From contig OZ024740.1 of the NCBI GenBank assembly GCA_964016885.1, positions 355,012,001 to 355,076,000 of the forward strand: 64,000 nt of DNA. Reading direction: 5' to 3'. A program made the position numbers and the translations under genes. Source of the DNA: Eledone cirrhosa (taxonomy: Eukaryota). Of the stretch, positions 6,019 to 60,282 are shown piece after piece. The notes under the pieces were generated by a model. That model ran no database searches, had not been told where the DNA came from, and worked only from the letters and a program-made list of their open reading frames with translations. How positions within the stretch are numbered: position 1 is the stretch's first letter; each line of letters opens with the position of its first letter.

Positions 6019-8030
6019 TTTGAGAACTGCAATTATTTTTGAATTCTTGAACTCTCATTTAAAGCTTCTTATTTTATGAGGAAAATAAATAAATATTGTG
6101 TAGAATCTTCTCTAGTTGTCTTTCTGAGATATTAATTTCTAAAATGTTCCAATTCTTTAAAATGTTCCAATTCTTTATTTATCATTATTATATAACATTT
6201 TTTAATGCTTGCATGGGTTGAACAAATCTTCTCTAGCACTGTGTCTCACCACTAATTACAATCTTTTGTCATCTCCTTCATTAACATTCTGTTTTCCTTG
6301 GGCTGTTTGATATATCAACCTACTATGACTAGGGAGCCCTATTTATTCTCCTCCTAGCTTTCATAATTCCTAAAATGGTCTTACAACATGCGTGTTCACA
6401 CTGTTGTTAGATAGTCATTGACTGTATGCTGCATTCATCCATCTTCTTGACAAGTCCTTTTTTTTTCTGTACTAGAGGATTTCTAGCAGCCCACCTAATT
6501 AGGCTAGTCAGGTGTGGTGCTGTTTTAGTCATGAAGCTCTCCACTGTTACTAGTAGCACTCTAAGCCACCTGACACAAGTTTGTTGCAAAACATTAACAG
6601 ACCACTTTAACTTTTTTGATACCAAACCACCCTGGATTTATGATATAAAACTTACTAATTTTAAAATGTCTATCCTTATATTGAAACTTTCATCATAATT
6701 TTATTTTAGATATTTTTCTTCAGTAATGTTCTAAGTATCAGTTTATTAATGAAAAACTATTTTTAATTAAATTTTATAAAATTCCTTTAAATATTTGCTT
6801 ATTTTTAAAATTAATTGCAACACATAGGCAGTGTATTTCGTTAGAAATATGATAATGAAAAGGGTAAGCTTCTTTCCATGCTATACATGGCAGTTAGTTT
6901 CTTTTCTGCTTACCAGATGTTCCTTACCCCACTCACTTTCTTCTAATTTTTTTAGTGCCATTTCATAGGTTTATAGCTCTCTCTCTCTATTGTACACTTC
7001 CACTGCCACATTGTCTTTTGTCTTGCTGGAAGTTTGGTCTATTAACCTATCAGACCTGTAGCTTACAGATGTTTGTATCACAGAAACTCCCAATTGGCCT
7101 CTATGTTATAACTCCTTAACTCCTTGTTATACATGTTAACTAGTACTTCTTTAAACCTACATCTAGCTGCAGGATTTTTCCGCTTCCTTACCTTCATTTT
7201 CCAGATTGTCATGTGTCTGTCTATCTCTTGCACTGATGTCACAAATCACTAGTCTATATTGGGCAGTACATTTTACACTGGGGAAAGACTATTCACAATA
7301 TTCACAATCTTGTTTTCTGGTGAGCATGAAGTCTACCTGACTTGTGTGATCACCTGATTGTTAGGTGATTTGTAGTAATTTTAAACTTGGTACCTATTTA
7401 AAAATCAAAATTTACATAGATTTTTTTTTTTTTTTTTTTTTTTTTTAACTAATTGAAACTGGAAACAAGCAACAAAAAAATATTTTTCTTCTTTTATTTA
7501 AACTAATTGCTTGTGAAATTTTCTGAAATAACTGCTGGTAGCAAGGTATAAATCATCGTTCTGAAAAGAAAAATTATATACCAAGATTAATTCTTCTCTT
7601 GTGTTTGTGGATATTGCCAGAAAATGTTCTTTATCTTGTAATTGCAGTGTTATTTACTGAAATCAGGTCTGTTTCTTTCTATTTAACGTTTGTTGAATAG
7701 CTAGTTTCAAATTTTAATTCTATCTCAAGTAGATTTAGAATGGATGATTTACCTTGATATCACAAATTTGTTGCATTTTAAAACCATTGTGAAATTATTT
7801 TTCTTAATAGAATGTTAAGTGAAATGACCACCTCCCTGCCTTTTTTTCTTCTTCAAAATATGTAAACTTTAACCCAAATTTCAGTAACCCCATATTAATA
7901 TAAAATTTTATGTTCTTGAACTAACCTGTTTTTCATGATACTGTTTCATTAACTTACTTTTAATTTTACTGTTTTATTTACTTATTTTTTTTATTCATGT
8001 TTAATCTTTTTGTTCTCCCTTGAACACCAG

Positions 8031-8120
8031 GCCAGAGGCATTATTCTTTTCATAATCCTAACCCCAAACATGTGGAACGTTTTTCCTCTCTCAATATGAA
8101 AAGACCAAATCGTAATGAAG
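8031..8120 (+). CDS. FAM135A: Candidate internal coding exon of the FAM135-family gene (GQRHYSFHNPNPKHVERFSSLNMKRPNRNEG)
   Basis: Long polypyrimidine tract ending CCAG, 90-nt open frame, donor GAAG|GTATAT; phase 1-1, compatible with the phase-1 start of the 17059 exon. No recognisable homology (variable middle region). Confidence 0.55.
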
Positions 8121-8271
8121 GTATATAATATTCTCGCAGCATATTGATCTCTTTTAGAGGAAAAGTAAAACTACTTTTCAAGATTCCTCTTGAAACCCAA
8201 CTAATCTCTACACCACGTAATCTGCAGGATTAGAATAGTGTGTCTATATAGTGTACTTCAAAATAATGTAG

Positions 8272-34546: not shown

Positions 34547-34946
<400 letters not shown>

Positions 34947-37677: not shown

Positions 37678-40600
37678 TTAGGTAAGGCGGGTCTTCTCTG
37701 TTACTGAGTACCGCCAAAGGTCTCGGTCCAGTGACATTGTCTTGGAGAGGTGTAAGTGTGTGATGTCGGAGTTTATCAGCTCGTCCCAGGTTTTTCTAGG
37801 TCTGCCTATTCCGTGACTACCGTCTATCTTTATTGCCCTGCACTTTGTTATACAGCTATCGACTTTCATGCGCATCACGTGTCCATACCAACGTAGCCTT
37901 CTCTCGAGTAAACAACATCTGATCCCTCTTATCTCTAATTTTTTCCTTAGTTCGTTTATGCTTTGCCGTTCACGTATATTACTGTTACACATCCAGCGGA
38001 GCATGCAAGCTTCGTTCCTCTCTAGTCTGCGTATATCCTCTGCACACAATGCCCAGGTCTCACTGCCATGCAGCATTGCTGTTCGTATGCAGGCATCGTA
38101 CAACCTGCCTTTCATTTTTAGTGAGAACCCTTTAGCAGCTAATAGTGGTATAAGCTCTCTGAACTTTTTCCAACCAGTTCTGACTCTAGCTACAGTACTT
38201 TCAGAGCACCCTCCCCCACTGCTGATTTTATCGCCCAGGTAACGGAAGCTGTCCACTATTTCTATAGAACCCTCTGCGCAATTGAAAGAGCTAGTAGTTT
38301 GTGGGCACTTGCTGCTACTTATTGCACCAGAGCACCGGCCACATGTAAAATCTATGTTCTTAGTTAGCTTACCTGTGATCCCACTACATCTTTTATGCAC
38401 CCATACTTTGCATTTAGGACATAAAATGGAGTTTCTACCTACGCCTTTCCTACACACCGAGCACGACCATTTCCCAGAAGGGACCGCCGCCTTGTTTTCT
38501 TTCCTACAAACTAGTACTTTGGTCTTAGCCAGGTTAATTTTAAGTCCTTTTGACTCTAGGCCGTGCTTCCATGTTTGGAATTTCTTCTCTAGCTCGGCCA
38601 TTGATTCCGCTATGAGTGTCAGGTCGTCTGCGTATAGGAGTTCCCATGGGCAGCCTGTCTTGAACTCCTCTGTTATAGCCTGAAGGGCAATAATAAATAG
38701 TAGTGGACTGAGAACAGAGCCCTGATGGACGCCAACTTTTACGCTAAACTCTTCACTATATTCGTTGTTAATTCTAACCTTGCTGACTGTTTCTTTATAC
38801 ATGGCTTGTATAGCCCTCACAAGCCATTCGTCAACGCCTAGTTTTCTAAGAGCCCACCAGATAATGGAGCGGGGGACTCTGTCGAAGGCTTTCTCCAAGT
38901 CGACAAAAGCTAAGTAGAGGGGTTTACCTTTAGCTAGGTACTTCTCCTGTAGTTGTCGTACTATGAAAAGAGCGTCTGTGGTACTTTTGCCTGACACAAA
39001 CCCGAACTGCATTTCATCTAGGTCAATTCTCTCTCTGATTAGTTGCGCTATTACTCTTTCCGTGACCTTCATGACCTGGTCGATTAATTTAATGCCTCTA
39101 TAGTTACTCCTATCTAGGGCGTCTCCTTTACCCTTATAACAGTTAACGATGATGCTGCTATGCCAGTCCTTCGGAACAACCCCATTCTGTACGACTTGGT
39201 TAACTATGCGGGTGACCATGGTGTGTCCCACCGTGCCAGATGCCTTCAGCATCTCAGCAACTATTTCCGAAGGCCCAGCCGCCTTACCAGTCTTCATATC
39301 CTTGATTGCCTTACTTATTATACTCCCCTCGACTAACACTGCTGGTCCCTCTATTGGGCCGATATGGGGGAGACTGCCTTTCTCCCAATTATTCTCCTCA
39401 TTTAGAAGCCTTTCATAGTGACACTTCCAAGCTACCTTCTTATCAGCGTCGGTGATGGCAAGTGTGCCATCGTCGTTTAGTACACACTTCTCCCCGACAA
39501 TATCACGGTTTTCCTTGACGCATTGCCTAGCAATCCTGAACACCTCACGTTTTTGGTCATCGCGTTGTAGAACATGCTTGAACTTTCTTTCCTCAGCTTC
39601 CCTTCTTGCTAAGTACACTTGTCTCCTAGCTTCCCTCCTGGCCACTTGATAGTCCTCTCTACTTCCCCCATCCCGCCATACTTTCCAAGCCTGCTTTTTG
39701 GCCTTAATTGACCCCTCCACCTTACTGTTCCACCACCATGTTACTCTCCTCCTGCCTACAGGCCTGCTCCAGCCACAGACCTCGTCTGTCGCCAACAGCA
39801 GGTTTGCTTTCAGAAATTCCCACTCTCCCTCTATATTGTCCGACTCTAAATGTTCTTCCTTACTGTCGAAAGCATCAAGTAATATGCTTTGAAATTTATT
39901 CCTGGCTGTGGGGTCCTTTAGCTTCCATATTTTCCTCCTGAGGATAGTCCTCTTCTGTTGTCGAGTACGTCTCGTCCTGACTATGAGGTCGCTAATTATC
40001 AGTCTATGTTGGGAGGTGCATTCTTCATGGGGGAGGGATTTAGTGTTAACAACAGACACTCTGTCACGTCTTCTGGTAAGGATATAATCTACCTGGCTTG
40101 TGTGTTCCCCGGATCTATAGGTGATCAGGTGATTGTCACGTTTTTTGAAGTTAGTGTTACAGATAGTTAGGTTATTTGCATCACAGAATTCCAGGATTCT
40201 GGAGCCTTCCTCATTTCTAGTACCAAACCCATAGCCTCCATGGATTTCGTCGTAGCCGTCACAATGTTGTCCAACGTGACCATTTAGGTCGCCTGCGATA
40301 ATTATATAGTCACTGTCGGATATTTGGGAGGTAGTTAGCATCAGTGTCTCATAGAATCTGTCTTTTATAGTGCCGGGCAGTCCGGATTGGGGTGCGTACG
40401 CAGATATTACTGTCACCGTAGTTCTATTGAGGACAAGTCGTATTTTAATTATTCTGTCGTTCACTCTATTTACGTCTATTATCTTATCTGCCCACTTTTC
40501 TGCTACCATGATTCCTACTCCACCCAGCCCATCGTCGTTTCCCACCCAGAAAAGCTTATAACAACGTTTTTTACCCTCAATGAACCTAGCAGACCCACCC

Positions 40601-40908
40601 CTCCACCTGGTCTCTTGAATACAACAAACATCGACCTCCTTACGTTCAAGCATTTCTACAACCTCGTTAGCGCGACCCTTTAGGGTGCCTACATTTATGG
40701 TACCAACTCTGAAGTTTTGGATTGCGTTTGGGGGTTGGGGGCGGTGAGGGGCGGGGGGCGATGGGGTTATGTTAGCCGTCCGCGGTCGAAACAATGAGGA
40801 GTGCTCGCATTCTCGTCCAAGGGGTGAATTTGTCTTTATCTTTGGCATTGTCGCTGAGCGTCCAGATTTTTCTCTCTCACCTCCACTCTCCAGGATTCCG
40901 CAGTCCAT
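37678..40908 (-). CDS. Intact RTE-clade LINE ORF: AP endonuclease + reverse transcriptase with inserted C4HC3 (PHD-like) finger, 1076 aa
   Basis: APE motifs (GTINVGTL, CIQETRW, SAYAPQ, IAGDLNGHVG, VDYIL, SQHR); RT motifs (NYRGIKL, QFGF, DLEKAFD, GVHQGSVLSP, YADD, YLG); RTE-type C-terminus (RLRWYGHVMR, GRPRKTW, DRDLWR). No stops. Confidence 0.97.
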   Translation of the reverse strand: MDCGILESGGEREKSGRSATMPKIKTNSPLGRECEHSSLFRPRTANITPSPPAPHRPQPPNAIQNFRVGTINVGTLKGRANEVVEMLERKEVDVCCIQETRWRGGSARFIEGKKRCYKLFWVGNDDGLGGVGIMVAEKWADKIIDVNRVNDRIIKIRLVLNRTTVTVISAYAPQSGLPGTIKDRFYETLMLTTSQISDSDYIIIAGDLNGHVGQHCDGYDEIHGGYGFGTRNEEGSRILEFCDANNLTICNTNFKKRDNHLITYRSGEHTSQVDYILTRRRDRVSVVNTKSLPHEECTSQHRLIISDLIVRTRRTRQQKRTILRRKIWKLKDPTARNKFQSILLDAFDSKEEHLESDNIEGEWEFLKANLLLATDEVCGWSRPVGRRRVTWWWNSKVEGSIKAKKQAWKVWRDGGSREDYQVARREARRQVYLARREAEERKFKHVLQRDDQKREVFRIARQCVKENRDIVGEKCVLNDDGTLAITDADKKVAWKCHYERLLNEENNWEKGSLPHIGPIEGPAVLVEGSIISKAIKDMKTGKAAGPSEIVAEMLKASGTVGHTMVTRIVNQVVQNGVVPKDWHSSIIVNCYKGKGDALDRSNYRGIKLIDQVMKVTERVIAQLIRERIDLDEMQFGFVSGKSTTDALFIVRQLQEKYLAKGKPLYLAFVDLEKAFDRVPRSIIWWALRKLGVDEWLVRAIQAMYKETVSKVRINNEYSEEFSVKVGVHQGSVLSPLLFIIALQAITEEFKTGCPWELLYADDLTLIAESMAELEKKFQTWKHGLESKGLKINLAKTKVLVCRKENKAAVPSGKWSCSVCRKGVGRNSILCPKCKVWVHKRCSGITGKLTKNIDFTCGRCSGAISSSKCPQTTSSFNCAEGSIEIVDSFRYLGDKISSGGGCSESTVARVRTGWKKFRELIPLLAAKGFSLKMKGRLYDACIRTAMLHGSETWALCAEDIRRLERNEACMLRWMCNSNIRERQSINELRKKLEIRGIRCCLLERRLRWYGHVMRMKVDSCITKCRAIKIDGSHGIGRPRKTWDELINSDITHLHLSKTMSLDRDLWRYSVTEKTRLT

Positions 40909-40959
40909 CCATCCATCATATATCGTATATCGAAAGGCAACCAGGCAAGCGATAGTATA

Positions 40960-41060
40960 GGCCTCTGGTTTCTGATTGGTCCGCGTGATAATACTGGTGA
41001 TGCGTGGGGGCTCTGTTTTATGATTGGTCCACGTAATAGCAATGGTGGTGTGTGGTGTTG
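40960..41060. promoter_or_regulatory. Duplicated ~48-bp CCAAT-containing motif in the LINE 5'UTR; one copy matches ERSE-II
   Basis: TGATTGGTCCGCGT (40973) and TGATTGGTCCACGT (41021); the ERSE-II consensus is ATTGG-N-CCACG. Function untested. Confidence 0.4.
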
Positions 41061-41062
41061 GG

Positions 41063-41176
41063 TAGCTAGCAAGAAGGTAATGATTGAGTGGGGTCCATGC
41101 TAGCTAGCAAGAAGGTAATGATTGAGTGGGGTCCATGCTAGCTAGCAAGAAGGTAATGATTGAGTGGGGTCCATGC
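41063..41176. repeat. Three copies of a 38-bp unit joining the LINE 5'UTR to the monomer array
   Basis: TAGCTAGCAAGAAGGTAATGATTGAGTGGGGTCCATGC at 41063, 41101, 41139. Confidence 0.95.
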
Positions 41177-44100
41177 ATTTAACAAGCGATTAACAAAAAT
41201 ACAAAATTTGTTCTGTTAAATACGTCCAAAAACCTACGTATTTAGCACTTAATAGAAACAGAAAATGTAGTTTGTTTTAGCGATAGATTGGCTATTTGGA
41301 CTTGATACGAAATATGGATTGTTTTGAAAATACGCTAGGAGAGAGAGAGAGAGAGAGATGAAGTCTGTACATTACGTTTACATGAATTTCGTTGGGACAG
41401 CAAGCAATGAAATGAAATTTGGCGAAGTGAATTCCTATCATATATTTATAGGGAGAGAGAGAGAGAGTGAGCGAGAGCGAGGGTAGGGGGCCACATGATG
41501 GCTGTGGGTGTTAGGCGTTTGACCGCCCCGTGCCTTCGAAGAAGGAAGAAGGAAAGGATTTTGCTTTTTTGTTTTGAAGATACGCTAGAATTAGGGATTG
41601 GGGTTTGAAAATACGTTAGGAATTAAGGTTTGAAAATAGCTAGCAAGAAGGTAATGATTGAGTGGGGTCCATGCATTTAACAAGCGATTAACAAAAATAC
41701 AAAATTTGTTCTGTTAAATACGTCCAAAAACCTACGTATTTAGCACTTAATAGAAACAGAAAATGTAGTTTGTTTTAGCGATAGATTGGCTATTTGGACT
41801 TGATACGAAATATGGATTGTTTTGAAAATACGCTAGGAGAGAGAGAGAGAGAGATGAAGTCTGTACATTACGTTTACATGAATTTCGTTGGGACAGCAAG
41901 CAATGAAATGAAATTTGGCGAAGTGAATTCCTATCATATATTTATAGGGAGAGAGAGAGAGAGTGAGCGAGAGCGAGGGTAGGGGGCCACATGATGGCTG
42001 TGGGTGTTAGGCGTTTGACCGCCCCGTGCCTTCGAAGAAGGAAGAAGGAAAGGATTTTGCTTTTTTGTTTTGAAGATACGCTAGAATTAGGGATTGGGGT
42101 TTGAAAATACGTTAGGAATTAAGGTTTGAAAATAGCTAGCAAGAAGGTAATGATTGAGTGGGGTCCATGCATTTAACAAGCGATTAACAAAAATACAAAA
42201 TTTGTTCTGTTAAATACGTCCAAAAACCTACGTATTTAGCACTTAATAGAAACAGAAAATGTAGTTTGTTTTAGCGATAGATTGGCTATTTGGACTTGAT
42301 ACGAAATATGGATTGTTTTGAAAATACGCTAGGAGAGAGAGAGAGAGAGATGAAGTCTGTACATTACGTTTACATGAATTTCGTTGGGACAGCAAGCAAT
42401 GAAATGAAATTTGGCGAAGTGAATTCCTATCATATATTTATAGGGAGAGAGAGAGAGAGTGAGCGAGAGCGAGGGTAGGGGGCCACATGATGGCTGTGGG
42501 TGTTAGGCGTTTGACCGCCCCGTGCCTTCGAAGAAGGAAGAAGGAAAGGATTTTGCTTTTTTGTTTTGAAGATACGCTAGAATTAGGGATTGGGGTTTGA
42601 AAATACGTTAGGAATTAAGGTTTGAAAATAGCTAGCAAGAAGGTAATGATTGAGTGGGGTCCATGCATTTAACAAGCGATTAACAAAAATACAAAATTTG
42701 TTCTGTTAAATACGTCCAAAAACCTACGTATTTAGCACTTAATAGAAACAGAAAATGTAGTTTGTTTTAGCGATAGATTGGCTATTTGGACTTGATACGA
42801 AATATGGATTGTTTTGAAAATACGCTAGGAGAGAGAGAGAGAGAGAGATGAAGTCTGTACATTACGTTTACATGAATTTCGTTGGGACAGCAAGCAATGA
42901 AATGAAATTTGGCGAAGTGAATTCCTATCATATATTTATAGGGAGAGAGAGAGAGAGTGAGCGAGAGCGAGGGTAGGGGGCCACATGATGGCTGTGGGTG
43001 TTAGGCGTTTGACCGCCCCGTGCCTTCGAAGAAGGAAGAAGGAAAGGATTTTGCTTTTTTGTTTTGAAGATACGCTAGAATTAGGGATTGGGGTTTGAAA
43101 ATACGTTAGGAATTAAGGTTTGAAAATAGCTAGCAAGAAGGTAATGATTGAGTGGGGTCCATGCATTTAACAAGCGATTAACAAAAATACAAAATTTGTT
43201 CTGTTAAATACGTCCAAAAACCTACGTATTTAGCACTTAATAGAAACAGAAAATGTAGTTTGTTTTAGCGATAGATTGGCTATTTGGACTTGATACGAAA
43301 TATGGATTGTTTTGAAAATACGCTAGGAGAGAGAGAGAGAGAGAGATGAAGTCTGTACATTACGTTTACATGAATTTCGTTGGGACAGCAAGCAATGAAA
43401 TGAAATTTGGCGAAGTGAATTCCTATCATATATTTATAGGGAGAGAGAGAGAGAGTGAGCGAGAGCGAGGGTAGGGGGCCACATGATGGCTGTGGGTGTT
43501 AGGCGTTTGACCGCCCCGTGCCTTCGAAGAAGGAAGAAGGAAAGGATTTTGCTTTTTTGTTTTGAAGATACGCTAGAATTAGGGATTGGGGTTTGAAAAT
43601 ACGTTAGGAATTAAGGTTTGAAAATAGCTAGCAAGAAGGTAATGATTGAGTGGGGTCCATGCATTTAACAAGCGATTAACAAAAATACAAAATTTGTTCT
43701 GTTAAATACGTCCAAAAACCTACGTATTTAGCACTTAATAGAAACAGAAAATGTAGTTTGTTTTAGCGATAGATTGGCTATTTGGACTTGATACGAAATA
43801 TGGATTGTTTTGAAAATACGCTAGGAGAGAGAGAGAGAGAGATGAAGTCTGTACATTACGTTTACATGAATTTCGTTGGGACAGCAAGCAATGAAATGAA
43901 ATTTGGCGAAGTGAATTCCTATCATATATTTATAGGGAGAGAGAGAGAGAGTGAGCGAGAGCGAGGGTAGGGGGCCACATGATGGCTGTGGGTGTTAGGC
44001 GTTTGACCGCCCCGTGCCTTCGAAGAAGGAAGAAGGAAAGGATTTTGCTTTTTTGTTTTGAAGATACGCTAGAATTAGGGATTGGGGTTTGAAAATACGT

Positions 44101-44193
44101 TAGGAATTAAGGTTTGAAAATAGCTAGCAAGAAGGTAATGATTGAGTGGGGTCCATGCATTTAACAAGCGATTAACAAAAATACAAAATTTGT
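41141..44193. repeat. Tandem array of six 496/498-bp units plus a ~70-bp partial unit
   Basis: Unit starts (GCTAGCAAGAAGG) at 41141, 41639, 42135, 42631, 43129, 43627, 44123; the only difference noticed is the length of one (GA)n tract. Confidence 0.97.
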
Positions 44194-44484
44194 ATATATA
44201 TATATATAGTGTAGTTTGTGTATATATATATATATATATATACATATATACACACACACACACATATAGGGTAGTTTGTTAAAGAATATCCAAAGTTAGG
44301 AGAACACTTATATATATATATATATATTGGATTAAATGCTCTGAAATAGCGATATATATGTGAAGATAGACATAGAATATTCGAAAATATTCTGTATGTT
44401 TATAATAAACATTTTGAAGACCTAATCGCTATAGAATAGAATACGTCACGTATTACAATTAGATTCTCGATAAAAGCAAGGGAA

Positions 44485-44527
44485 GTAACCTACGCGTTTC
44501 ATTCTTATTAGAAATCTTCAGGATTAC
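44485..44527 (-). ncRNA. Type I hammerhead ribozyme in the inverted copy
   Basis: Exact reverse complement of 44836-44878. Confidence 0.85.
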
Positions 44528-44835
44528 ATATCCAGTGCTTTTATCGAGAATGACACAGCTAGAGACTTATAGAATACTTAGCTGTGTACAGGAACTGGTT
44601 TGAAAGAGCGGTTGCCGGTCCGGCAGAAATTAGAAATTGGATTAAATGTATAAACATACAGAATATTTTCGAATATTCTATGTCTATCTTCACATATATA
44701 TCGCTATTTCAGAGCATTTAATCCAATTTCTAATTTCTGCCGGACCGGCAACCGCTCTTTCAAACCAGTTCCTGTACACAGCTAAGTATTCTATAAGTCT
44801 CTAGCTGTGTCATTCTCGATAAAAGCACTGGATAT

Positions 44836-44878
44836 GTAATCCTGAAGATTTCTAATAAGAATGAAACGCGTAGGTTAC
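44836..44878 (+). ncRNA. Type I hammerhead ribozyme, direct copy 1
   Basis: GTAATC-CTGAAGA-T-TTCT(AATA)AGAA-T-GAAA-CGCG-TA-GGTTAC: stem I GUAAUC/GGUUAC, CUGANGA and GAAA core, palindromic CGCG at stem III, predicted cut after A44872. Confidence 0.85.
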
Positions 44879-45144
44879 TTCCCTTGCTTTTATCGAGAAT
44901 CTAATTGTAATACGTGACGTATTCTATTCTATAGCGATTAGGTCTTCAAAATGTTTATTATAAACATACAGAATATTTTCGAATATTCTATGTCTATCTT
45001 CACATATATATCGCTATTTCAGAGCATTTAATCCAACTTCTAATTTCTGCCGGACCAGCACCGCTCTTTCAAACCAGTTCCTCTACACAGCTAAGTATTC
45101 TATAAGTCTCTAGCTGTGTGATTCTCGATAAAAGCACTGGATAT

Positions 45145-45187
45145 GTAATCCTGAAGATTTCTAATAAGAATGAAACGCGTAGGTTAC
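45145..45187 (+). ncRNA. Type I hammerhead ribozyme, direct copy 2
   Basis: Identical to 44836-44878. Confidence 0.85.
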
Positions 45188-45454
45188 TTCCCTTGCTTTT
45201 ATCGAGAATCTAATTGTAATACGTGACGTATTCTATTCTATAGCGATTAGGTCTTCAAAATGTTTATTATAAACATACAGAATATTTTCGAATATTCTAT
45301 GTCTATCTTCACATATATATCGCTATTTCAGAGCATTTAATCCAATTTCTAATTTCTGCCGGACCGGCAACCGCTCTTTCAAACCAGTTCCTGTACACAG
45401 CTAAGTATTCTATAAGTCTCTAGCTGTGTCATTCTCGATAAAAGCACTGGATAT

Positions 45455-45497
45455 GTAATCCTGAAGATTTCTAATAAGAATGAAACGCGTAGGTTAC
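45455..45497 (+). ncRNA. Type I hammerhead ribozyme, direct copy 3
   Basis: Identical to 44836-44878. Confidence 0.85.
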
Positions 45498-45764
45498 TTC
45501 CCTTGCTTTTATCGAGAATCTAATTGTAATACGTGACGTATTCTATTCTATAGCGATTAGGTCTTCAAAATGTTTATTATAAACATACAGAATATTTTCG
45601 AATATTCTATGTCTATCTTCACATATATATCGCTATTTCAGAGCATTTAATCCAATTTCTAATTTCTGCCGGACCGGCAACCGCTCTTTCAAACCAGTTC
45701 CTGTACACAGCTAAGTATTCTATAAGTCTCTAGCTGTGTCATTCTCGATAAAAGCACTGGATAT

Positions 45765-45807
45765 ATAATCCTGAAGATTTCTAATAAGAATGAAACGCGT
45801 AGGTTAC
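45765..45807 (+). ncRNA. Type I hammerhead ribozyme, direct copy 4
   Basis: Same core; G>A at the outer base of stem I. Confidence 0.83.
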
Positions 45808-45929
45808 TTCCCTTGCTTTTATCGAGAATCTAATTGTAATACGTGACGTATTCTATTCTATAGCGATTAGGTCTTCAAAATGTTTATTATAAACATACAG
45901 AATATTTTCGAATATTCTATGTCTATCTT

Positions 45930-45975
<46 letters not shown>

Positions 45976-47304
45976 TGTTCTCCTAACTTTATATATATAT
46001 CATCACCGTTTAACGTCCATTTTTCCACGCTGGCATGGGCTAGACAAGTTATCCTGTTGTGAGCAATGCTAGGTCAGGTGGACATATCATGTATGTGTGT
46101 GTGTATATATACACACACACACGCATACATATATGTATGTATATAGGCGAGAACAGAGGTATTATATCTATAGGAACTTCTGTATGCAGATGACCTAGTT
46201 CTCATAGCTAAATTTGGGGAAAAATGTGAGAAGAAATTCCAAATATAGAAGCAAAACTGAAAATTGAGAAGTAAATCTAGTAAAAACAAAAGTTTTAGTT
46301 AGAAAGAAAAACAGGACTCTTCTACCATCTGCAAAGTACCCATAGTCAATATACTGTATAGTTATTGCTAGTAATTCCATATTGTGTACCCAATGTAAAC
46401 TATTCTTGCTAACAAATATTAAATGATGATGATGGTGTTCTGAAAGTGTAAATAAATCAGGGAGCTATTAACTCTTCTGGCAACAAAATAATTCTCTATT
46501 ACAATGATTGGTAAATTGTATGATGTTTATATATGAAATGCAATGTTGTGTGGCAGCTAAACATAGACAAAGAATACAGAAAATATGCTAAGACTGGAAA
46601 GAAATGAAGCAAGTGTGCTCGTTTGGAAATGTTATGTTAGTGTGAATGAATAATGGAGTACAAAAGAGCTGAAATTTTAAAATATGGGTATAAGACTAAT
46701 CAGATATTGTGTGCAAGAAAGGAGGTTCCTCTGGTACAGACATGATGTGTATGGAAGTTGATTTTTGGGTAAAGAATGCCAAGTGGAATGGATCAATGGA
46801 AGGCATAGGAAGAAGTTATGAAAGCTCATCTCAGGAATCTTAACCTCATAAGGTAAATAACAAACCATGATAAGTGACAATACACTGTGCTGGAAAAGCT
46901 CCATCCACTCCTTGAAAGCATAAATACATGTAAAATGATATGATGAATAGGTAACATCAAAATTTACAGTGACGTTATGTTGTTGCAATTTTGTTGTTCT
47001 AAATTATTAGTTGAATATATTTTCCTCCCTTTCCTCATTTCTTCTCCTTCCCTTCCTCCATTTCCTCTTCCTCGCATGTCAGTGTTTTTGAAATATTGGG
47101 TGAAATGTCTGCTTTCTCTGCTAACAAGATTGACTGGGTGACCACAGATGAAGTATTATCTGTCTAAGAAAAGGAAATCAAACCTTTTAGATGCAATCTT
47201 AGCTACATGGAGAATATAGATTTCTTTCAGAAACTGTTATTCCTAGAATTGCTTTGATAGTCCTAGAATGTATGTGATGTAAAAGCTGATGAATTAGAAG
47301 TATT

Positions 47305-47589: not shown

Positions 47590-47769
<180 letters not shown>

Positions 47770-55788: not shown

Positions 55789-56018
55789 TTAATCTTTTGT
55801 ATTGTACAAAATAAAGTCATACAGTAACTGAGCTCCTTTGAATTTCAACATTTTCAGAGATTTGGTCATGGTCCTCATAATTGGTAATAATGTAGCAACT
55901 ACCTCAGGGTGATTGATCTCCAGCATTGCTAACAGGATAAAACAACCTCGGTTACAAGCAGCCCATGATTTCAGTACACTTACAGGAACTGTGTTCAGTA
56001 AGACCAGGGAAAAATAAA
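55789..56018 (-). CDS. PUM3: PUM3 (pumilio homolog 3 / Puf-A / KIAA0020) terminal exon (YFSLVLL...LKSWAACNRGCFILL...YNTKD*)
   Basis: TTGCAG acceptor, TAA stop; LKSWAxxNRG motif; AATAAA on the minus strand near 55715-55727. Confidence 0.92.
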
Positions 56019-56089
56019 CTGCAATGAGATATAGATATAATTTTTACAAACATTTCACATAAACAGGGAGAAAAAATAACTAGACAATG

Positions 56090-56435
56090 TAAAAAGGGTG
56101 GGGCAGACTACACCCCTGCTCCAAATGGACAAAGATGCAACACTTGCTGTATCAGCATGATACACTCCTGCTAATTTTGCAGAGGAAAGCGGCAGGTTGA
56201 CATAGGAGGTTTCAACAGCAACAGGCATGAAAAGGAAGTGGGCTGTCAAGTATTTCAATATCTTTTGCTCCTCTGCTCTACAGGTGGTAGTGCCCAGGTT
56301 TGTGACTGAAGTGACATCATTGGAAGTGCAGAATGTGGCATTCCACCAGATTAGTTTTTTTAACTCCAAATCTTGAATGGAAAAGGTTGATTCTGTTTGT
56401 GTGCTTACTGTTACCAGGGTCTGAATTCAGACTTA
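56090..56435 (-). mobile_element. Relic of a restriction-like-endonuclease LINE (CRE-like) C-terminus
   Basis: Translation LIWWNATF...AEEQKILKYL...FLFMPVAVETS resembles the LVWDAT...AE..K..KY..L...F.PVAVET.G pattern. Confidence 0.5.
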
Positions 56436-56611
56436 TGGATCAACACTGAATTTGCTTTTGCCAAGAATGTAGCACAAAATTCATACATTTACAGGGGAGA
56501 GATATAGTCTATAAAACTGAAATGGCTCCAGTTTTTTTATAGAGGGAATGCAAAGAGAATACATCTCAGAGAATGAGCCATAACTAAATATGTTAATATA
56601 TATATATATAA

Positions 56612-56760
56612 ATGGAGGCACATGGCTTAGTGGTTAGAGCATTGGCCTTGCAATCGAAAGGTTGTGAGTTCAATTCCTAGACCGGGGTGATGTGTTGTTT
56701 CCTTGAGCAAGACACTTTATTTCACATTGCTCCAGTTTACTCAGCTGTAGAAATGAGATG
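56612..56760 (+). mobile_element. Second tRNA-derived SINE family
   Basis: TGGCTTAGTGGTTAGAGC A box, GAGTTCAATTCC B box, CCTTGAGCAAGACACT core. Relatives at ~14560-14870(+), ~30200-30452(-), ~62200-62320(+). Confidence 0.75.
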
Positions 56761-57189
56761 ATAGGGACTGGGGTCCATATCATTCCACTGCAAAGTGGTC
56801 GTGGAGGTGCCACGGCAAAAAAGCACCCAGCACTCACTATAAATGAGGTTGGTGTTAGGAAGGGCATCCAGCTGTAGAAATCAAGCCAGAATCAGTTCCC
56901 GTCCCACCCTTGCAAGCAGGGAAAAGCAGACGTAAAATGAAATGATGATGAATGATATATATATATATATATATATATATGTGAAGGTGAACTTAATGTA
57001 GATGTAACTATTGTTTGAATTAGAAACCTTTATTGTTAAAAGTGTGAAGTGTAAACACTTTCAACTATACCTCTGTACATAGGACATCATCCAGATAAAT
57101 TTCAAACCTTATTGTGTACTTATTAGTGGATAATTAACTCTATGATAATACATATATTGGTATATAATCAAAAGAAAAGCCCTACAAAC

Positions 57190-57369
57190 CTGTATCATCA
57201 TTATCATTATCTTTATCTTTTTCATAATTTTCTTTATCAAAAGCAATCAGTTTCTTCAGAGTTATGTGTCCAGCTGGGTGCTCTACTATGTGTAGATCAC
57301 CAAGACTGCTACTGTCCATAGTCTCAGCACAAATTTCAGCAACAGCTTCCATTGATTTTGTCTTGTCGC
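57190..57369 (-). CDS. PUM3: PUM3 exon (GDKTKSMEAVAEICA...LHIVEHPAGHITLKKLIAFDK...)
   Basis: AG/GT boundaries, phase 1-1; LHIxEHPAGH motif of the CPL domain. Confidence 0.94.
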
Positions 57370-58247
57370 CTATTGGAAATCAAAGAATATTTATTTTGGT
57401 GAATTTGCAATTGTCATTTGGTAAACATATTTTAGCAGTGTAAAATTTTGCATACTTAGTAATATACACCTTTTTCATATATGAAAATATACTGAAGTTC
57501 TTAACACAAGCCCTTTTAATATATTAATTTTTCATATGTAATTATACACGCAATCTAATCCATTTTTCAACATTTATGTGACGGCCAAAATTATAGAAAT
57601 GAATTTGAGGTAGTCAACCTCTATTTATTTGTCGACATCAAATGGAAGAAATATCTAAGTAGCTGCAGCATGATTTGAAAACAGAAATTTGAGTCCTTGT
57701 CATTATATATTTTCAACAATACTGTTGACTGGATATCTATAGCTGAAAAATATTGTTAAACTTCTGCAGAACATGAACATAGCTTTAGATATCCTCCAAA
57801 TAAAACATTATAGCTCACACAGTTCCTTTCTCAGCACCCCAGCTAAAGAACATCCAGTCTAGTGCTCTAACACTTGCAATGATTATTTTAAGTCCACTAC
57901 TAGTGAGTCCCCAGTTTACTGGGTTGCAGGTACTTTACAGTAAGACTGTCCTAAATGTAGGACAAAAGAAATGCAATAGCAGAGCCTATTCATAAGAGAA
58001 AGGATTTGAACATATCACAGCAAGCTAAACAAAACAGCATTCCTACTGTTTCCACAAATGAGTTGTACCTATATATGGTACTTATTTATAAATAGATATA
58101 TCTGGTAAAAGTTGAATGATACAAAATAATACAGGAAAACAAGTCATACTAATCTTTCAAACATTGAAAACTAATTTACAGATAATACAACTTTCACAGT
58201 AGATTAGAAAAGACAAAAAAAAAAGCCAGACTTTGAATAATATTTAC

Positions 58248-58393
58248 CTTTAGCATGTGTGATAATGCTGACCAGGAAGAGGAGGCTGTTGTTGTCACTG
58301 ACCAGATCTTTAGTATTTTCTGTCACAAACTTCAACAATGGTTTTGAGATAATATCCAATAATTCAGAATGTCGAATAAGTGAATCTTTTTTG
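58248..58393 (-). CDS. PUM3: PUM3 exon (SKKDSLIRHSELLDIISKPLLKFV...)
   Basis: AG/GT boundaries, phase 2-1; SKKD..R..ELL motif. Confidence 0.94.
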
Positions 58394-59099
58394 CTGAAAA
58401 TTTACAAACAATAAACTTTATTAAATGATTTAACTCTTTTGATATCAACCTGCCAAAAACTGGCTCTAGTTCTATGAAACAAAGCAGCTAACACGTGTTC
58501 CTACACTCCAGAGTGCACTGAGTGCTTGTCTTATACACAACTGATGAGCCCTCATGGCTCTTTGTTTGGCATGTTTTCTATGGCTGGGCTGGATCCCTCT
58601 ATGATTAAAAGTACAAGGATCTCCATCGATTTCAACAATGAGTGTTACAATTGTTTTTTGAATGGAACAGTCTATTTATGAAATTAATGTACAAGTGACT
58701 GAGCATTCTACAGAGAAGCTCATACATTCAAACCATATTTATAGCCTTTATCATATGTAGCGACATGGAGTTACGGCTCTTTACGGGCTGAGTTCAAATC
58801 CCGCTGAGGTTAACTTTGCCTTTTATCTTTACGGGGTCGATAAAATAAAGTATCAGTGATACATTGGATAATTGCTGGCCAAAAGTAGAAACAATTATCA
58901 TATGTTGCTTGATAAAGCACATAGTTTATTGCTTCAGTATTGTTAAAAAAAAAAAAGTTTCACTTTTGTAGTTAAACAGTAAAAAAAGATCCTACCCATT
59001 TTAGCATAACTGCTGTATGGTTGCAAAGTGAAAGAGTGTGTATCAAGTCTTTTAGTTTAATTTGATGAATAGAAAATCTGAAACCTTAAAAAAAATTAC

Positions 59100-59242
59100 C
59101 TGAATTCATTGTCATCTCCTTCTCGCATAATCTTAATAACATCTGGATGGAAATGTAATGGATCACGAGGAGCTAGTAAGTACAATAGAAGCTTTCGTCC
59201 AAATGAATTAGTTGCTATTTCTTTCAAAGATTTCAAAATTTC
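59100..59242 (-). CDS. PUM3: PUM3 exon (EILKSLKEIATNSFGRKLLLYLLAPRDPLHFHPDVIKIMREGDDNEFS)
   Basis: AG/GT boundaries, phase 0-2; GRKxLLYLLxPRDP motif. Confidence 0.95.
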
Positions 59243-59413
59243 CTGAAGAAAACAAAATGAGTCAGGTTAAAATAAAAAACGATTTTTAAAAGAAGTTTAG
59301 AACAAGACCATAAATTTTGGGCGTCATTATAGTCAATTAAATAAACTACAGCTCTATCCAATAATAACTGTTTCTAACAAACATTTTTTAGAAGAACAGT
59401 TGATTATATTTAA

Positions 59414-59608
59414 CCCTTTAGCATTTAAACCGGCCATAATTCTCTCACCTTTTTCTGTCCAAACTGGCCATAACAAGCCACTCATACTTATGTTAAGGTA
59501 TTGTTCTTAAACTAAATAATATCAAAATCTTGTAGATTCGATATTATGTGAGGTAAAGCCTTTAATGCGAAAATATAACATATATAGAGTAATGTAAATG
59601 CTAAAGGG
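59414..59608. mobile_element. MITE with 14-bp TIRs and TTAA flanks (piggyBac-like)
   Basis: TTAA-CCCTTTAGCATTTA...TAAATGCTAAAGGG-TTAA; homologous copies at ~22599-22813 and ~33654-33872 (reverse). Confidence 0.85.
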
Positions 59609-59773
59609 TTAAGAAACTTTTGTTATGTAATCTTTCAAACATCAGCTTATTAATCAAAATGTTAATTATTTCATTAAATTCTTAAAATATTCAAAGTTAA
59701 TCGATACTTATAGGCAGTATATTTCATAAAAAAATATGGTTAACAGCTAAGACACAAATAGCTTAATACTTAC

Positions 59774-59908
59774 CTCCAAGATAACTTTCGATAGTAATTT
59801 TGTATCATCAACAACATCAAAAGCAGACAGCAACACCTGATGAGCATACTCCTCCTGGCACATTTTCAAGATGAAACCTTTGAAACTTTTTACAATCACT
59901 TTTCGATC
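59774..59908 (-). CDS. PUM3: PUM3 exon (DRKVIVKSFKGFILKMCQEEYAHQVLLSAFDVVDDTKLLSKVILE)
   Basis: Within ORF 59747..60028; AG/GT boundaries; DRKVIVK and DDTKL motifs. Confidence 0.96.
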
Positions 59909-60282
59909 CTGAAATGAAAGCAAGAAAAGGAAATAAAACAAACGGCAAAGATAGACAAACTTAGCATAGAATGCACAAAACGTAATAAAATATTTTGTTA
60001 GTTGAGTTCTGCAATTAGAAATGGTCAAAAGATACTATTGAAAACTTTCTATCAAGTAATTTATCCAAGGCAGGTCAGCTTGGTGGAGACCATCCCCCAA
60101 CTAACTCTATCCAACAGAAAAATCAAAGTCAATAGAACAAGGTAACAAGATAGGGTCGCTCTGACCTGTCTAGTCATGGTCCATGACAACTCATATAACT
60201 GATGCCAATGGAGAAAGCAGACAGAAAACGATGATAATGAACCTATATAGAAAATATTTTAGAATATAAATTATATATTTAC

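Follow-up and report, generated by a model that had tools for sequence, protein, structure and literature searches.

A young, dispersed retrozyme family of an octopod genome and the Penelope-type anatomy of its insertions

The window, the whole 64,000-nt stretch of Eledone cirrhosa DNA analysed here, holds a tandem array between two exons of a FAM135 gene, on the same strand as the gene and within an intron of 12.7 kb; the flanking exons bear out the placement made by an earlier, sequence-only reading, and the last FAM135 exon is 100% identical to Octopus and Argonauta proteins. The array forms one part of a two-armed insertion, the features of which are as follows, with sites A and B denoting the two positions of the unit at which outer ends fall.

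34788-34943, plus strand: FAM135 exon on the 5′ side of the host intron, matching aa 1158-1209 of P0003 at 100% identity
44310-44325, no strand: left part of the (TA)n target, read from the sequence
44326-44648, minus strand: inverted arm of 1.04 units, 100% identical, facing the direct arm head-to-head; on its outer side it stops at site A, 165 nt beyond the predicted cut
44326-44360, minus strand: Penelope-type 'tail' of about 35 nt, reaching from site B to site A and present at this insertion end only
44485-44527, minus strand: hammerhead motif of the inverted arm, read from the sequence
44649-45940, plus strand: direct arm of 4.17 tandem 310-nt units, which passes into (TA)n at its outer end, site B, 130-139 nt beyond the predicted cut
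44812-44900, plus strand: 16-bp helix that closes the internal loop of stem I, given for the first copy; the sister family has a counterpart with altered letters
44836-44878, plus strand: type I hammerhead motif of copy 1, with the cut predicted after A44872, a 1-bp stem III with palindromic loop, and U-U at the base of stem II
45145-45187, plus strand: hammerhead motif, copy 2; predicted cut after A45181
45455-45497, plus strand: hammerhead motif, copy 3; predicted cut after A45491
45765-45807, plus strand: hammerhead motif, copy 4; predicted cut after A45801; outer stem I pair broken (G>A at 45765)
45934-45973, no strand: right part of the (TA)n target, from the sequence and TRF
47611-47727, plus strand: FAM135 exon on the 3′ side of the host intron, matching aa 1208-1246 of P0003 at 95% identity

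TRF reports the tandem at 44649-45940 with a period of 310, 4.2 copies and 98% matches, as the sequence-only reading had described, and the direct units measure 310, 309, 310, 310 and 53 nt. Copy 1 differs from copy 2 by four substitutions and one deletion, from copy 4 by one substitution and from copy 3 by none, so the few differences do fall mostly in copy 2 as claimed. Inside the span first given, 44326-45940, an inverted fifth copy (44326-44648, minus strand, 323 nt, 100% identical, with its own minus-strand hammerhead motif) had gone undescribed. Both outer ends of the insert merge into (TA)n. Each full direct copy carries the type I hammerhead motif that had been noticed, with its CTGAAGA core at 44842, 45151, 45461 and 45771, a 6-bp stem I, a 4-bp stem II over U-U and a stem III of 1 bp closed by a palindromic loop, and the five hairpins named earlier are all found. 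There is no credible ORF in the 310-bp unit or the array, and an ORF for reverse transcriptase (RT) with GIY-YIG is absent from the array and present in trans elsewhere in the genome.

In the FAM135 pre-mRNA a 322-bp duplex would form between the inverted arm and the first unit, a likely substrate for the A-to-I editing found in cephalopods. An 18-nt inverted repeat (44292-44309 and 45973-45990) brackets the insertion immediately beyond the (TA)n runs on either side. Similar non-repeat flanks that match outward turn up at a few loci more, strongly at L224 and weakly at L220, L223 and L214, without a general rule. Upstream, at 41139-44193, a 496-bp unit stands in 6.1 near-identical tandem copies that stop about 130 bp short of the retrozyme. 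These copies adjoin, on its upstream side, an intact 1,141-aa APE-RT-PHD LINE frame (37678-41103, minus strand) and are probably the repeated 5′ region of that LINE. Exons at about 55,800-60,030 on the minus strand, for which Pfam returned no match, resemble what we take to be a Pumilio-homolog-3 gene.

Folding of the circular monomer, suggested in the sequence-only reading, predicts a strongly self-paired molecule (-69.0 kcal/mol; z = -5.4 against 150 dinucleotide shuffles), the reverse strand being as structured (z = -5.8, dinucleotide shuffles), and the 16-bp helix proposed beyond the stem I internal loop forms at 44812-44827/44885-44900 with pair probabilities of 0.6-1.0. A scan with hammerhead models, also suggested there, brings up in Rfam only Hammerhead_HH9, below threshold (17.1 bits, E 1.6, against a gathering score of 52) and at two of the five motifs. 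The predicted minimum-energy fold of the isolated motif (-32.8) is not the catalytic one (-19.0 as drawn, without internal-loop pairs); in the alignment fold stems I and II form, and the predicted minimum of the window monomer is a non-catalytic fold. The palindromic stem III duplex is predicted at -7.5 kcal/mol, favouring a dimer; PMC4209133 describes hammerheads that become active as dimers by way of such a palindromic stem. The U-U at the base of stem II, raised earlier as a caveat on activity, is indeed present but is not disqualifying, as it recurs in the sister retrozyme and in Penelope hammerheads of the same genome, and axolotl HHR_Amex2 cleaves despite it (PMC7229834). Among the Xenopus retrozyme dimers reported in the text of a preprint, only one of nine cleaved (10.64898/2026.07.22.740005).

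Genome-wide, a degenerate hammerhead-core pattern has 16,981 matches and its reversed control none, the exact core variant of the window accounting for 987 matches, and a DNA search of the genome gives 229 matches, of which the listed full-length ones are mostly 99-100% identical (39 of 412 candidates scored). The mapped loci are dispersed and show no LTR organisation. Within arrays, the subfamily of the window carries 2.3 non-shared changes per kb (105 units), compared with 0.09 per kb in nine younger arrays, in which 72 units hold two non-shared substitutions. A younger variant of the family has a CUGAUGA core and A-U, where the subfamily of the window has CUGAAGA and U-U. A sister family with a 306-315-nt unit (2,737 candidates, 40 scored; best copies 94-96% alike) is 64% identical to the family of the window and keeps the hammerhead core and, as judged by eye, both end sites. 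Of 76 consensus pairs compared between the two families, 39 are unchanged, 10 changed on one side, nine on both sides and 18 broken or gapped, a tally that is supportive rather than an independent test as the consensus structure derives from the same two-family alignment. On this sequence evidence the window element is a young, dispersed, non-coding retrozyme of a known class, the metazoan non-LTR retrozymes. The octopod FAM135, the dispersed near-identical copies and run X1, which holds both the unit and its single-copy flanking introns, support the earlier description of a young cephalopod retrozyme family. Runs X4-X6 were rejected as other species carrying the unit and are not counted as independent conservation, as they hold high-copy repeats of the region and essentially none of its single-copy DNA and their variant matches the young subfamily of this genome. 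Separately, an abundant fold-back element found in (TA)n (L106 at 7990-8210, and L099, L102 and L115) contains a hammerhead core whose stem II is an almost exact match to that of the retrozyme family.

To describe the insertions we mapped 63 loci, 35 by identity to the unit of the window (the window included), 17 by position in the first 31 Mb of C1 and 11 by haplotype, the last from one subfamily. Counted from the predicted cut, outer ends fall at site A, near +165, or at site B, +130 to +139, the position of B being blurred by TA-like sequence. An inverted truncated copy abuts a partial tandem at 48 of the 63 loci, the arms joined head-to-head with little or no overlap, and 43 of these two-armed loci have one A and one B end, none has AA or BB, and five have an end outside both classes (binomial p 2e-13). 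The 15 single-armed loci divide into eight with A and seven with B; one of them, L044, has a second arm of roughly 13 nt ending at A, so that a fair count is 43 of 44 classifiable loci. A tail is accordingly present at one end only in 43 of 44 classifiable loci, measuring 26-35 nt since site B merges into (TA)n, and target-site duplications are unreadable within this target. Penelope insertions are described as having a truncated copy in inverted orientation and, at one end, a tail of 30-40 bp (PMC8557442; PMC3846280). In vitro the tail has been shown to span the interval from one RT start site to a second, both strands of the target being cut and extended (PMC11167929). Because the spacing of the two ends fits both the 30-40 bp tail and the two RT start sites, we conclude from the sequences that the retrozyme is very probably mobilised by Penelope-type machinery. 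The earlier link to Penelope is thereby backed by insertion anatomy; its other part, a Penelope element sharing the unit, found no counterpart in the families sampled, as no homology of the unit to the terminal repeat of an autonomous element emerged among them (150 of 10,596 GIY-YIG candidates scored).

GIY-YIG searches over the same candidates recovered several Penelope families, in most of which a cysteine linker joins the RT to the endonuclease. The best helper candidate is a family with a 4,202-bp tandem unit, in which a 775-aa RT-endonuclease frame follows an upstream ORF and is free of stops in 67 of 69 scored matches; over 36 copies the median identity is 99.84% (528 pairs, a few from overlapping fetches). 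The C-terminal GIY-YIG follows the RT with a linker of the form CX2-5CxxC, a feature of the Neptune/Nematis clade (PMC8557442), which places the family as Neptune/Nematis type. Its target is (TA)n, its insertions end about 123 or about 177 nt beyond the predicted cut of the hammerhead that it carries, and all seven two-armed insertions read at both ends have one long and one short end. Tandem 4.2-kb units share locus-level variants, as do the arms in five of six insertions with two long arms, the sixth having none in either, and the hammerhead has the same CUGAAGA core, U-U and palindromic stem III. This family is matched to the retrozyme in age, target and geometry and not in sequence: unit and helper have no alignable sequence (z 1.6; 15 of 200 shuffles as good), and the unit set against four Penelope 3′ regions, of the helper and three other families, gave nothing above shuffles. 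A second Penelope family likewise has long open frames. A junction between the array and a Penelope 3′ end at L048 was rejected as a co-insertion, the Penelope copy being 5-6% diverged from its best-scored kin and so older. In the left flank of L217 a retrozyme insertion and the 3′ end of the candidate helper lie in one (TA)n tract. The Penelope 3′ regions at L097, L068 and L225/L229 carry hammerhead-like motifs with U at core position 3, and two of these families have the U3-A8 swap described in PMC4209133, which CUGANGA patterns miss.

The arms also bear on the template. The cut site is spanned intact by 102 of 116 arms, and inner ends within 3 nt of the cut number three of 116 where 2.2 are expected, with an even spread round the unit (chi-square p 0.47), so that cut linear monomers are not the template. 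Both arms are often multi-unit, they reach up to 17 units or 5.2 kb with random stop points, and the same variant is found in both arms of an insertion. In one subfamily (12 loci, 97 units) three nested variants are fixed in all full units of their arrays, in 4 of 4 and 17 of 17 units across both arms, one of them common to two loci, and four variants are confined to single units, with none at intermediate frequency; such a pattern of fixed or single-unit variants is what repeated reading of a circle predicts. The homogeneity of young arrays together with read-through of the cut site favours a circular monomer as the template over an uncut multimeric RNA, the less likely alternative. Changes cluster just past the predicted cut at L198, L207, L224 and L031, where substitutions fall at positions 1-2 and two 1-nt insertions arose independently at positions 2-3; these may be errors of a ligation junction.

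We propose a model in which an RT-endonuclease of Neptune/Nematis type acts in trans on a circular 310-nt monomer, and we consider this whole chain, as reconstructed from genomic sequence, to be probable. Read-through transcription of the array would give a multimeric RNA, in which neighbouring hammerheads would pair through their palindromic stems III and cut out monomers that a host ligase would circularise, as in the axolotl, mussel and coral retrozymes on which this second step is modelled. A Penelope endonuclease would then cut both strands of (TA)n, the target seen in the insertions, and each DNA end would serve as primer for copying one shared template by reverse transcription, starting at site A from one end and at site B, about 35 nt upstream, from the other; the rule of one A and one B is observed, and the priming is modelled on in vitro work with an anole Penelope. 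Each cDNA crosses the cut site and runs for up to 17 units before a random stop, for which rolling round the circle would be the cause, and the two cDNAs join head-to-head with little or no overlap. More tentatively, and with somewhat less than even confidence, we extend this model to the pair of elements: a pair of Penelope RTs would set out from the two ends of the (TA)n break, using two start sites, and copy a single RNA circle made by the ribozyme through rolling-circle, target-primed reverse transcription, the retrozyme hijacking them by shape and spacing, not by shared sequence, and the autonomous helper using the same route. The helper is included because its own tandem units and both its arms share locus-level variants. 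If true, the partial tandems, inverted ends and tails of Penelope would fall under one mechanism, and the pair would be an active, clonable helper and parasite.

Two-ended Penelope insertion on an uncut linear multimer, with a weak or later-acting hammerhead and no need of a circle, is the main rival; in vitro, hammerhead-dead RNA inserted as well as wild type, with uncut RNA as the main substrate (PMC11167929). The motif itself looks weak, with its U-U and 1-bp stem III, and arms of up to 5.2 kb lie within reach of the helper's own arms. Homogeneous source loci could moreover explain array homogeneity, as haplotypes are common to many loci; the variants at L203, taken at one point as private to that locus, were rejected as such when their haplotype proved to be a 710-unit subfamily. 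Copying a linear multimer, however, cannot lengthen an array, nor can it alone bring a new change to every one of 17 units across the two arms. The lack of intermediate-frequency variants in young arrays and the retention of core and helices between two families only 64% identical also speak against it, and we judge it unlikely, if still to be taken seriously. Improbable in our view is the insertion of one or two units by Penelope machinery followed by satellite-like growth in place through unequal exchange, per Li et al., a model stated in 10.64898/2026.07.22.740005: older arrays (L056, L064, L045, L050, L031) do have variants repeated in blocks, at L056 with a period of four that is not continued a third time, which implies some growth after insertion or from mixed templates, but both arms are often multi-unit, and the longest arrays belong to subfamilies with next to no divergence (0.09 changes per kb), so that they had little time to grow. 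The reading as a local satellite or an assembly artefact in which a hammerhead-like motif arose by chance, to which the Rfam score far under threshold might have pointed, is refuted by the 16,981 exact core matches with none in the reversed control, by dispersed loci with fixed ends, by the core kept in the sister family and by the joint presence of unit and single-copy introns in run X1. The model of a circular monomer copied by Penelope machinery is the reading that we prefer.

How animal retrozymes move is an open question, for which Penelope enzymes and circular templates have been proposed and not demonstrated; the circle-plus-Penelope route was put forward without insertion-site evidence (PMC7229834; 10.64898/2026.07.22.740005). 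The present family gives a quantitative footprint of insertion, with one end per start site, read-through of the cut site and homogeneous arms, and an intact helper candidate of the same age means that the route could be reconstituted in vitro with the existing Penelope assay. It also follows that an octopod genome now holds thousands of perfect inverted repeats and predicted self-cutting sites, some of them in introns. Literature searches, with the supplement of PMC7229834 and its further invertebrate retrozymes outside their scope, found no published cephalopod or octopus retrozyme, and in the main text of PMC7229834 the words 'inverted', 'tail', 'microsatellite', 'octopus' and 'cephalopod' do not occur.

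In unit organisation, dispersal and self-pairing the element has the sequence traits of a metazoan non-LTR retrozyme. Like the retrozymes of coral, mussel and axolotl it is a tandem repeat of a non-coding unit a few hundred bases long, each unit bearing one type I hammerhead (Cervera and de la Pena 2020, PMC7229834; Li, Clavereau and Pollet 2026, 10.64898/2026.07.22.740005), low in GC, with a strongly self-paired predicted circle, thousands of copies and Penelope in the same genome. Its stem III resembles that of axolotl HHR_Amex1 (1 bp and a palindromic tetraloop) and its stem II U-U that of HHR_Amex2 (PMC7229834). Unlike the metazoan retrozymes as described in these texts, its insertions into (TA)n are double arrays joined head-to-head and bounded at two fixed end sites; and where 24 of 57 Xenopus retrozyme families have TE matches (10.64898/2026.07.22.740005), the octopod unit is no alignable derivative of the Penelope terminal repeats sampled. 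It resembles endonuclease-bearing Penelope elements of Neptune/Nematis type, which have partial tandems, an inverted 5′-truncated copy, a 30-40 bp tail and a (TA)n target (PMC8557442; PMC11167929; PMC3846280; PMC4209133), together with a hammerhead predicted to act as a dimer. Finally, it differs from them in having no ORF, the whole element consisting of the 310-nt unit, repeated up to 17 times per arm.
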